Shown one piece after another: positions 1 to 5,122 of a DNA stretch of 64,000 nt. The notes below the pieces were generated by a model that did no database searches, was not told where the DNA came from, and worked only from the letters and a program-made list of their open reading frames with translations. The stretch lies in the NCBI RefSeq assembly GCF_024223415.1, contig NZ_CP100500.1; one strand, written 5' to 3'. Source of the stretch: Escherichia coli. GTDB taxonomy: Bacteria; Pseudomonadota; Gammaproteobacteria; Enterobacterales; Enterobacteriaceae. The stretch's first letter is position 1. Every line of letters begins with the position of its first letter. Made by a program: the position numbers and the translations under genes.

Positions 1-205
1 TTTTTGGCGGTTACCATCGCCTCACCTTCCTGGTTCACACAAAGCAACCCTGATTTTCCATGAAAACTTCAGGGTTGAGCCAAAAGCACAAAGACAGTAG
101 ATTAACCAAGGGTACCCGCCACCTGCCAACAGGAACGGTATCCAGTACGTATTAATGACTGACAATTCACATTGCTGTTTTGCCCGCCAGAAGGTGGGCA
201 TTTTT
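1..205 (+). repeat. Tandem repeat unit 1 (~200 bp): 8-bp-stem hairpin near 46-78, then intrinsic terminator; sRNA-like, unrecognised; array continues left of window
   Basis: Window opens inside a T-run matching unit ends; about 80% identity to 203-410 over the core; GC hairpin plus T7 at 3' end. Confidence 0.5.
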
Positions 206-207
206 TT
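181..207 (+). terminator. Rho-independent terminator of repeat unit 1
   Basis: gcccgcc-agaa-ggtgggc hairpin followed by T7. Confidence 0.6.
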
Positions 208-410
208 GGCAGTTATCATGGACGCACCTTCATGACACATATTAAGCAGACCTGATTTTTCCATGAAAAATTCATGGTTGAGACAAAAGCACAAAAACAG
301 TAGATTAACCACGGGTGCCTGCCACCTGACAACAGGAAGGGGTGTCCATTATCCATGATATACAAACGAAAAGTCTTGTCTTTTGCCCGCCGTTGCGCGG
401 GCTTTTTTTT
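203..410 (+). repeat. Tandem repeat unit 2, paralogous to unit 1; 3' third diverged
   Basis: Aligns with 1-205 (shared tttttggc..ccacctt..cctgatttt(t)ccatgaaaa..ggttgag.caaaagcacaaa.acagtagattaacca.gggt.cc.gccacctg.caacaggaa); ends in GC hairpin plus T9. Confidence 0.5.
383..410 (+). terminator. Rho-independent terminator of repeat unit 2
   Basis: gcccgc-cgtt-gcgggc perfect hairpin followed by T9. Confidence 0.65.
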
Positions 411-440
411 TGCCACCCTCACCAGTGAGGGTACCATCAT

Positions 441-662
441 TCAGAGGCGCGTAAGCCACCCGGCGTTAACATCCTGCCCGTCAACCCTGACCGCAGAGTC
501 TGAACGGCAGGCACCGGAAGCAGTACCAAAAACACCTCTGACAAGTTCCGCCACCTTCCCGATATCATCAGGCGCCACATTCCTCACCTCGACAGTGATC
601 CGTGGCGTACCATCATCGTTAACAAGCGTGGCTTTAAGGCTGGTACGACGGGCAAATAACAT
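441..662 (-). CDS. Hypothetical 73-aa protein (MLFARRTSLKATLVNDDGTPRITVEVRNVAPDDIGK...), function unknown
   Basis: Internal ATG of ORF-track ORF 441..728(-); GGAGG-containing SD (cgaagGGAGGgggtgttgATG) about 8 nt upstream; no family recognised; lies antisense to a + strand terminator-bounded segment. Confidence 0.35.
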   Translation of the reverse strand: MLFARRTSLKATLVNDDGTPRITVEVRNVAPDDIGKVAELVRGVFGTASGACRSDSAVRVDGQDVNAGWLTRL

Positions 663-721
663 CAACACCCCCTCCCTTCGGTTCGTTGCACTGGCAGCAC
701 GATACCACCAGGAAAAAGAAA

Positions 722-755
722 AGCCCACAACGTCAGGATTGCGGGCTTTTTTTCT
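722..755 (+). terminator. Rho-independent terminator closing the segment upstream of the copA promoter
   Basis: gcccacaa-N8-ttgcgggc hairpin (one mismatch) followed by T7. Confidence 0.55.
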
Positions 756-820
756 TCAAAAATGGACACTACGTGGACACTGATTAAATAATCCTTTCTT
801 AATCAGACTGTTAAAATGCT

Positions 821-851
821 TGACCTTCCCCTTGCTGGAAGGTTTAACCTT
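821..851 (+). promoter_or_regulatory. copA promoter with CueR (MerR-family) operator: TTGACC -35, 19-bp spacer containing the CCTTCC..GGAAGG dyad, -10
   Basis: ttgaccttccccttgctggaaggtttaacct about 40 nt upstream of the copA ATG; long-spacer MerR-type architecture. Confidence 0.8.
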
Positions 852-3399: not shown

Positions 3400-3524
<125 letters not shown>

Positions 3525-3592: not shown

Positions 3593-4096
3593 AGTAAAAC
3601 TGCCGCTGTAAATCATTACCTGGCCGGTCATGCAGGCATCATTTCTACGGCAAAACTCTTTCAACTTTCTCACACCAGCCTCTCACACTGGATTAATCTT
3701 TTTCTTCTTCACGGTCCTCAGGCACTGGATTGCAGACACAAGCGTAGCTATTCTCCTGAAGATAAACTTTGCGTGGTTCTTTATGCTCTCGGGCATTCTG
3801 AGTCTCTACCCCGGGTAGCTGCCCGGTTTAACATTCCCAGCCACAACATGGTTAAAAACTGGATAAAAGGCTACCGCAAATCTGGTAATGAGGCCTTTAT
3901 CAGGCGCAGGAAGGAGAAAAGCATGACCCGTTCTGATGATACCCATGAAAACGAGGCAAACATGACGCCGGAAGAGATGAAGAATGAGCTGCGTTATCTT
4001 CGCGCAGAAAATGCATATCTGAAAGCCATGCAGGAGCATCTCCTGGAAAAAAAGCGCCAGGAGCTGGAGAAAAAACGAAAGTCATCCAGAGCCTGA
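3593..4096 (+). CDS. IS3-family transposase OrfA (HTH); frame open from 3593 but no in-frame ATG, ORF track starts it at GTG 3773; likely 5' frameshifted
   Basis: Translation ..VNHYLAGHAGIISTAKLFQLSHTSLSHWINLF..RVAARFNIPSHNMVKNWIKGYRKSGNEAF.. plus leucine-zipper-like C-terminus; upstream ATG near 3576 is in another frame and stops after 11 codons. Confidence 0.6.
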   Translation, partial: SKTAAVNHYLAGHAGIISTAKLFQLSHTSLSHWINLFLLHGPQALDCRHKRSYSPEDKLCVVLYALGHSESLPRVAARFNIPSHNMVKNWIKGYRKSGNEAFIRRRKEKSMTRSDDTHENEANMTPEEMKNELRYLRAENAYLKAMQEHLLEKKRQELEKKRKSSRA

Positions 4097-4200
4097 AGTG
4101 CGGACACTGCCAGTCTGACCTGTTAAAGGCTGCAGGGCTGGCCAGAAGCACGCTGTACTACCAGCTGTCACTGCAGAAGGCTAAGGACAAGTATGCTGAT

Positions 4201-4955
<755 letters not shown>

Positions 4956-5122
4956 GTAAGCGTCGCATCAGGCAATGGTACTCGGATGCCGGATGCGGCG
5001 TGAACGCCTTATCCGGCCTACGGTTCAGGCACAGGTTTGTAGGCCTGATAAGACGCGTAAGCGTCGCATCAGGCAATGGTGCTCGGATGCCGGATGCGGC
5101 GTGAACGCCTTATCCGGCCTAC
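4956..5122. repeat. REP/BIME cluster, right part, immediately downstream of ybaQ
   Basis: Repeated gccggatgcggcgtgaacgccttatccggcctac and gcctgataagacgcgtaagcgtcgcatcaggc units. Confidence 0.8.

Follow-up and report, generated by a model that had tools for sequence, protein, structure and literature searches.

We found that positions 1-838 of the window, i.e., of the whole 64,000-nucleotide stretch of Escherichia coli DNA analysed here, form the right-hand end (attR) of a rare P2-like prophage. At this attR lies a minus-strand reading frame of 73 codons plus stop (ORF73; 441-662), which is probably a lineage-restricted, protein-coding cargo gene (i.e., a moron), with a neighbouring hairpin (T1) as the boundary terminator of the att/int module. 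The re-analysis fixes the anatomy of the region, namely the attR of a P2-like phage with the copA promoter/CueR box as its attB, and removes a false lead, namely that the locus is a type I toxin-antitoxin (TA)-like pair. Along the window, a pair of tandem sRNA-like units comes first; ORF73 follows on the minus strand, and after it come T1, the two Int arm-type repeats, an IHF-like site and, last, the 20-bp core.

The identity of the prophage and the anatomy of its attachment site are directly visible. The matching element in strain GF60 carries terminase, capsid and tail genes, gpD, ogr, a 71-aa ORF, the repeat array, ORF73 and then copA, and at the opposite end of the prophage are glsA, attL, int and a C-type repressor gene, with int and C both on the minus strand. 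In the window, the phage DNA ends at the att core CTTGACCTTCCCCTTGCTGG (20 bp; 819-838), and E. coli DNA follows, in which copA starts at 890. The core is duplicated, with one copy at 819-838 and the other in attL beside int. In K-12 it occurs as a single copy, forming the -35 hexamer and the left half of the CueR box of the copA promoter. The phage thus integrates into the copA promoter and rebuilds that promoter at attR.

Two features that define a P2-type attP or attR were found, i.e., a core duplicated at either end of the prophage (the end away from attR also carrying a tyrosine integrase) and arm-type direct repeats beside the core. Specifically, the plus strand carries two direct repeats TGGACAC (763-769 and 774-780) that match the consensus of P2-type Int arm-binding sites, tgTGGaCa (PMC3448106). 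These repeats are directly adjoined by T1. Between the arm sites and the core, also on the plus strand, is AATCAGACTGTTA (801-813), which we call IHF-like on the basis of the IHF consensus WATCARNNNNTTR.

The prophage is rare, occurring in about 30 of 5426 complete E. coli genomes. Segment 405-800 was found in 28 of these 5426 and had no match among 50,697 phage records. Five of the 28 genomes carry the window allele of ORF73 at copA, and the other 23 carry a second allele (~91% nucleotide identity), whose examined copies lie downstream of serS or zapB, so that ORF73 alleles are known from three sites (copA, serS and zapB). Searches of IMG/VR (two DNA pattern scans and one protein-based) returned one extra ORF73 copy, on a contig near the window allele, and the scans returned two further contigs with one sRNA-like unit each; the protein searches likewise pointed to no additional alleles. 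The tape-measure gene of the prophage is annotated as truncated, and the element may therefore be decaying.

To the left of ORF73, tandem sRNA-like genes and TA modules form an array of cassettes whose bounding terminators are near-identical, and this array is the more unusual feature of the phage lineage. The first sRNA-like unit in the window (unit B; 73-207, plus strand) has a promoter-like GGTTGAG-N17-GTAGATTA (73-104), a 5' stem-loop, an AU-rich linker and a terminator at 182-207; it lies outside the ORF73 cassette and is given here as context. The second (unit C; 276-411, plus strand) ends in a strong terminator at 385-411 (GCCCGC-6 nt-GCGGGC followed by T9) that forms the left boundary of the ORF73 cassette, and the homology between the two ORF73 alleles begins within its T-run, at ~406. 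Complementarity between the sRNA-like units and the ORF73 leader was no better than in shuffled sequences.

Comparison with related prophages indicates that the ORF73 site is a cargo slot with variable content. In two sister prophages located downstream of ihfA (L005 and L006), hicB-hicA directly follows the same T-run terminator, on the same strand as ORF73, and other sister arrays carry hok/sok. The slot thus shows two hallmarks of a moron locus, as it lies within the prophage between the last conserved core gene (ogr) and att, and as its content varies among close phages. Known att-adjacent morons of P2-like phages include ctx of Pseudomonas phage phiCTX and sopE of SopEphi. ORF73 resembles such morons in being a small accessory gene at the prophage edge beside the attachment site, in occupying a slot whose content differs (ORF73 or hicAB) between otherwise similar phages, and in being oriented opposite to the late genes. 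It differs from them in having no recognisable function, family, conserved promoter or terminator, and in that its slot ends a repeat array of sRNA-like units with near-identical bounding terminators. It also lies on the ogr side of att, which sets it apart from defence hotspots of P2-like prophages catalogued in one preprint, such as GpA-GpO, int-att, int-GpA, downstream of GpL and within the late genes (bioRxiv 10.64898/2026.02.27.708500).

ORF73 (MLFARRTSLKATLVNDDGTPRITVEVRNVAPDDIGKVAELVRGVFGTASGACRSDSAVRVDGQDVNAGWLTRL, with an ATG start) is listed in RefSeq as the hypothetical protein WP_029400554.1. The first-pass annotation had pointed to this frame and to a strong Shine-Dalgarno (SD) sequence in front of it, and both were readily found: GGGAGGGGG (668-676, minus strand) has a GGAGG core 8 nt before the ATG. 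We used 5000 dinucleotide-preserving shuffles of 411-760 as a null model and found an ATG-initiated ORF of at least 73 codons in 12% of them, and one with a properly spaced SD in 0.5% (p ~0.005); the rarity of the combination means that the observed feature is real and more than a product of chance. The SD is kept in both alleles although adjacent bases have changed. The composition of ORF73 is also coding-like and fits the genes of the prophage. Specifically, when codon tables were computed from genes of the prophage itself, the codon log-likelihood ratio in frame was +14.0 and +14.8 for the two alleles, and the ORF73 frame was the best of six; real 74-codon chunks of prophage genes scored 22 ± 7.6, and just 1.8% of wrong-frame or antisense chunks reached +14. 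GC content by codon position was 0.64, 0.51 and 0.53. A single-sequence AF2 model gave a compact beta-beta-alpha-beta fold (mean pLDDT 65, core 72-77). ORF73 would encode a small soluble alpha/beta protein. By shuffles, codon statistics and structure model, ORF73 looks coding, and we think it reasonably probable that it is, or recently was, a translated gene.

The frame is also conserved as a frame. It is intact in the ~91% allele and in 8 of 8 good-quality copies examined, and the two alleles are separated by 15 substitutions without any indel. Two frameshifted copies were considered as evidence against coding and set aside. In the assemblies behind one of them (P0003), serS and rarA are fragmented as well, so that the frameshift is probably a sequencing error; the other (P0004) is a 1-nt deletion in a T-run of a single Logan contig and is unconvincing.

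The main competing account is that ORF73 is non-functional, i.e., a chance or decaying frame between the last sRNA-like unit and attP, with selection acting on T1, on the leader hairpin described below and on the Int and IHF sites. Several observations favour it. The allele substitutions comprise 9 nonsynonymous and 4 synonymous changes and one double change (dN/dS ~0.76) and are spread evenly over codon positions (6, 4 and 5), and they thus offer no positive indication that the protein is under purifying selection. Every sequence and fold search left ORF73 an orphan, an ORF of its length alone is not rare in shuffles (the 12% given above), and PGAP annotates it in the window allele and skips it in the second. 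The same DNA is also open on the other strand: the plus strand of 411-760 indeed has no ATG, as the first-pass annotation had noted (this holds in 3% of shuffles), but it is not free of reading frames, since a 142-codon ORF (355-783), whose ATG lies just upstream of 411, crosses it and passes through two terminators.

Signals for autonomous transcription, i.e., an own promoter and terminator as in a typical moron, were likewise not found. No sigma-70 promoter common to both alleles was detected between T1 and the SD, where an extended -10 (TGgTATCGT) is present in the window allele alone, and no canonical terminator was detected downstream of ORF73. A perfect short hairpin, CCCTCAC-N-GTGAGGG (416-431, minus strand), lies a few bases past the stop codon; on that strand its stem is followed by an A-run and no U-tract, and it is thus not a canonical terminator. 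Against the non-functional account stand the strong, ideally spaced and conserved SD with its low probability in shuffles, a codon composition like that of the prophage's real genes, the 15 substitutions without indels in good assemblies, the compact fold predicted from a single sequence, and a slot and strand that bona fide cargo genes occupy in sister phages. We regard a non-functional ORF73 as rather unlikely, though far from negligible; translation, activity and mode of transcription of ORF73 are inferred.

Homology searches placed ORF73 in no known family, in agreement with the earlier reader, who had recognised none. Neither a word-indexed search of 5.8 billion protein clusters nor a full HMMER search of 1.84 billion representatives returned a homologue outside the phage lineage, tblastn against phages gave nothing besides the known E. 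coli prophage alleles, and there was no match in Pfam (including its TA families), PHROGs, NCBIfam, PADLOC or PDB sequences, nor any fold match. High-scoring matches to repeat proteins (P0005-P0008) were rejected, as they were sums of weak DGTP-type turn matches (FG-GAP-like repeats or junk translations). ORF73 showed no similarity to the HicA or HicB proteins of the same slot, and its only match to the 71-aa ORF of the array was a non-collinear one of 21 residues (shuffle p 0.008).

The sub-threshold matches did raise the question of whether ORF73 derives from a P2-family major capsid gene, as a relic or a recycled piece corresponding to capsid residues ~100-178. Its best Pfam match was PF05125 (Phage_cap_P2; ORF73 residues 43-72 against model positions 138-166, i-E 0.18) and its best PHROG match was phrog_70 (E 0.25), a family that the prophage's own capsid protein matches at 1e-130. 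The ORF73 stretch QDVNAGWL also resembles EDVNKGWL of that capsid protein, and the predicted beta-beta-alpha-beta order fits an E-loop followed by a helix, capsid residues ~100-178 comprising the E-loop hairpin and spine helix of the HK97 fold. However, every one of these scores is sub-threshold, so that there is no significant profile match to PF05125, the pairwise shuffle test (p = 0.033) aligned only 8 residues, and the second allele has no capsid-family match in Pfam or PHROGs. Suggestive as these signals are, we consider a capsid origin very improbable. The first-pass annotation had named loss of the frame in homologous regions and descent from a larger gene as grounds for giving up its proposal; with the frame intact and a larger-gene origin not demonstrable, neither applies.

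We found that the structured elements upstream of ORF73 are conserved specifically as minus-strand RNA. T1 (719-750, core stem 723-746) is a hairpin flanked by an A-run and a T-run that can act in both directions and is the stronger on the minus strand by folding and by terminator scanning. In the window allele, its folding energy is -22.0 kcal/mol for the minus strand, where UUUUCUUUUU follows, and -19.2 kcal/mol for the plus strand, where 7 T/U follow; in the second allele, the values are -17.7 kcal/mol (minus) versus -11.6 kcal/mol (plus), the latter with a z of only -1.85. The plus-strand intrinsic terminator that had been proposed at 722-755 is hence real as a hairpin with a T-run, but it is not specific to the plus strand: it folds better on the minus strand, and the terminator scanner listed it on the minus strand only (13 pairs, tail CTTTTTCC). 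Two stem substitutions separate the alleles, which on the minus strand convert C-G to U.G and G.U to A-U, and each allele has an A.C or C.A mismatch in the plus-strand stem where the minus strand has a G.U wobble. Pairing is therefore preserved solely on the minus strand.

The same was found for a leader hairpin just upstream of the SD (hp2; CUGGUGGUA-UCG-UGCUGCCAG, 691-711, minus strand), in which the alleles differ by one compensatory change (G-C to A-U) and by two one-sided ones, all of which leave the minus strand paired; on the plus strand hp2 is unstable owing to three G.U pairs. Nor is the reverse complement of the presumed plus-strand terminator a simple element of the ORF73 5' UTR, as had been supposed, because the minus-strand hairpin is a full terminator that would stop transcripts before they reach ORF73.

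The genomic context of T1 points the same way. In the longer array of L017, a related viral contig, a T1-like hairpin followed by two arm-type repeats adjoins a hok cassette, and the L003 array has TGGACA repeats at the corresponding place, an arrangement of hairpin and repeats that looks like a fossil att site. T1 thus seems to travel with the att module and not with ORF73, and, together with the minus-strand conservation, this assigns it to the att/int module, with selection acting on its structure as minus-strand RNA. We interpret T1 as the boundary terminator of that module and do not see it as terminating a dedicated antisense RNA. Once the phage is circular, its minus strand reads C, int, attP and T1 in this order, which would place T1 at the end of the C-int transcript; terminating this transcript is the simplest role for it. 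In the prophage state, T1 would insulate against read-in from host genes, and in the examined prophages with the second allele or hicAB, the host gene serS, zapB or ihfA points into the T1 end. Its T-run on the plus strand may also stop late or sRNA transcripts from entering int or host DNA.

A comparable arrangement is lambda tI/sib, whose terminator and RNA structure, located past attP, come after int only as long as the genome is not integrated. The present hairpin is likewise a strong minus-strand terminator immediately past attP; in the circular phage it comes after int, from which integration parts it. It differs in being bidirectional and in being followed by an SD-led ORF, and the analogy is one of layout and not of RNase III-type retroregulation.

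These results bear directly on the cis-antisense arrangement of type I TA loci that the first-pass annotation had proposed. In that account, a plus-strand RNA of ~310 nt would start at ~440 and end at the 722-755 hairpin, controlling ORF73 in the style of type I TA systems. Its promoter would be a sigma-70-like match at 410-437 (TTGCCA-16-TACCAT) that is present in both alleles (in the second as TTGCCA or TTGTCA, 16 nt, CATCAT), and further points in its favour are the 7 Ts after the plus-strand hairpin, the 350 nt of plus strand without an ATG, the abundance of TA modules nearby (hok/sok, hicAB) and a leader whose SD can be occluded, as in some type I toxin mRNAs. The likeness to hok/sok accordingly consists of a small ORF overlapped by a possible antisense transcript, a sequestrable SD in the leader, and genuine hok/sok modules in the same array of sister prophages.

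However, type I toxins are short hydrophobic membrane peptides, and ORF73 is not a membrane toxin. The predicted protein is soluble, 73 aa long and non-hydrophobic, without a transmembrane segment (maximum 15-residue Kyte-Doolittle mean 0.93, against 2.73 for the Hok of a sister array; GRAVY -0.07), which agrees with the earlier remark that it is not a typical short hydrophobic toxin, and it matches neither hok/sok nor any other type I family. Rfam returned only sub-threshold Thr_leader-type matches over 635-789, caused by the terminator, whereas sok matched the L003 array at E ~1e-8 and the real hok/sok modules of sister arrays were readily detected. The promoter is doubtful, as the match is just 9/12 with poor -10 hexamers, and the presumed antisense terminator belongs to attP: its plus-strand form is mismatched in both alleles and weak in the second, the hairpin substitutions all favour minus-strand pairing, and a second att-like site, beside different cargo, has a comparable hairpin with arm repeats. 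The hairpin is thus part of a phage attachment site, i.e., an ordinary prophage feature, and not an antisense RNA of a TA-like pair. We found the cis-antisense reading unsupported, and consider it very unlikely that such a plus-strand RNA controls ORF73.

By analogy with hicAB in the same slot and with hok/sok higher up in the array, the preferred cargo gene reading would give ORF73 a part in conflict between phages or between phage and host, or in retaining the prophage. A more ambitious version, which we think improbable, makes it a new small effector (e.g., in anti-defence, immunity or exclusion) that is RNA-gated and forms the last cassette of a modular array. Expression would then be gated by T1, by hp2, by occlusion of the SD through the pyrimidine tract and possibly by a plus-strand antisense RNA, and the protein would be made only in a particular phage state, e.g., after excision, with the C-int transcript reading towards ORF73. 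The array itself would be modular, its cassettes (sRNA, TA or small ORF, each bounded by terminators) recombining at the terminators they share. In the isolated leader, base-pairing between the SD and the pyrimidine tract that follows T1 is possible (-20 to -22 kcal/mol, z -2 to -2.8), which counts against the cargo gene reading; this pairing may be incidental to a G-rich SD lying next to a U-tract.

If ORF73 were such an expressed effector, it would add a new family to the small-protein repertoire of P2-like cargo hotspots. As found, it is of little significance, i.e., an orphan accessory ORF at a prophage edge that RefSeq already holds as a hypothetical protein. Small alpha/beta folds of the generic kind predicted for it are common to some anti-CRISPR, CdiI-type and antitoxin proteins.

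The prophage uses the copA promoter itself as its attB: within the 20-bp att core (CTTGACCTTCCCCTTGCTGG; window 819-838) lie the -35 hexamer and, from the CueR operator, the left half. The copA -10 is at window 845-850, and attL is at about 4259-4278 of L015, the locus that holds the other prophage end. Integration restores the copA promoter at attR, where phage DNA substitutes for everything upstream of the -35, and the whole prophage now stands between copA and glsA-ybaT.

The interval between ogr and attR is a cassette array of 1.4-3.7 kb in which one terminator type closes each cassette (L003 3570-7340, in the sister prophage at serS; L017 1-1560, on a related viral contig). Its cassettes include hok/sok (L003 4463-4780; Rfam sok, E about 1e-8), of which a degenerate second copy lies at L003 6469-6782. 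The array also holds partial duplicates of a 71-aa ORF described below, as well as fossil att-like sites near positions 4966 and 5164, which consist of a hairpin plus TGGACA repeats. Because homology between the two alleles of ORF73 (the 73-codon minus-strand candidate cargo gene) begins within a terminator T-run, sequence comparison suggests that the cassettes have been shuffled, either via recombination at common terminators or via tandem integration followed by deletion.

Judged by sequence, the tandem units of approximately 135 nt found in the array look like sRNA genes. Two lie on the + strand of the window (73-207 and 276-411), an additional one lies at L001 19407-19538, and five or six copies are present in the serS sister prophage (L003 3586-6403); altogether, we gathered 11 distinct unit sequences. 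Every unit has a conserved promoter-like GGTTGAG-N17-GTAGATTAAC. The units also have a 12-bp stem-loop at the 5' side (one unit has GGGUGCC/GGUGUCC, another GGGUACC/GGUAUCC), a single-stranded, AU-rich segment (e.g., UUAUCCAUGAU) and, at their end, a near-identical terminator (GCCCGCC-N-GGGC-T7). They had no match in Rfam. Of 5426 E. coli genomes, about 30 carry such units, as do three IMG/VR contigs.

A second small orphan ORF, the 71-aa WP_001236182.1, is located just beyond the window on the - strand (L001 19537-19752). It directly follows a + strand terminator, has a G-rich SD and is laid out like ORF73, and the two proteins share a non-collinear 21-residue match (LVxxxGTP...VxPDD; shuffle p 0.008). 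No family was found for it in NCBIfam or PADLOC. When the ORF73 leader was folded in isolation (window 660-718, minus strand), its SD (GGGAGGGGG) paired with a pyrimidine tract (CUUUUUCCU) 3' of T1, the bidirectional hairpin beside the Int arm repeats. This pairing is present in both ORF73 alleles (-20.1 and -21.6 kcal/mol), and could reflect either translational occlusion or a mere by-product of composition.

In the sister prophage downstream of ihfA, the ORF73 slot is filled by hicA-hicB (L005 / L006 4409-5036), with a predicted, near-consensus promoter (TTGCTT-17-TATAAT); strain GF60 is host to both types of prophage. The arm-type sites of the hicA-hicB prophage differ from those of the ORF73 prophage, and cargo and integration module therefore appear to have been exchanged jointly.

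Elsewhere in these prophages, the annotation marks the tail tape-measure gene as a truncated pseudogene, next to which lies an unannotated gap (L001 11949-15482; L004 1-740); the prophage may be defective, or there may be a misassembly or an insertion in this region. On the host side, no ybaQ ORF was seen downstream of copA in the window, its K-12 position being occupied by an IS3-family-like transposase of two ORFs (107 aa and 240 aa) flanked by REP-type repeats (window 3404-3482, 3773-4923 and 4914-5119). These repeats match Rfam naRNA4, with the copy at 5042-5119 scoring 87 bits.
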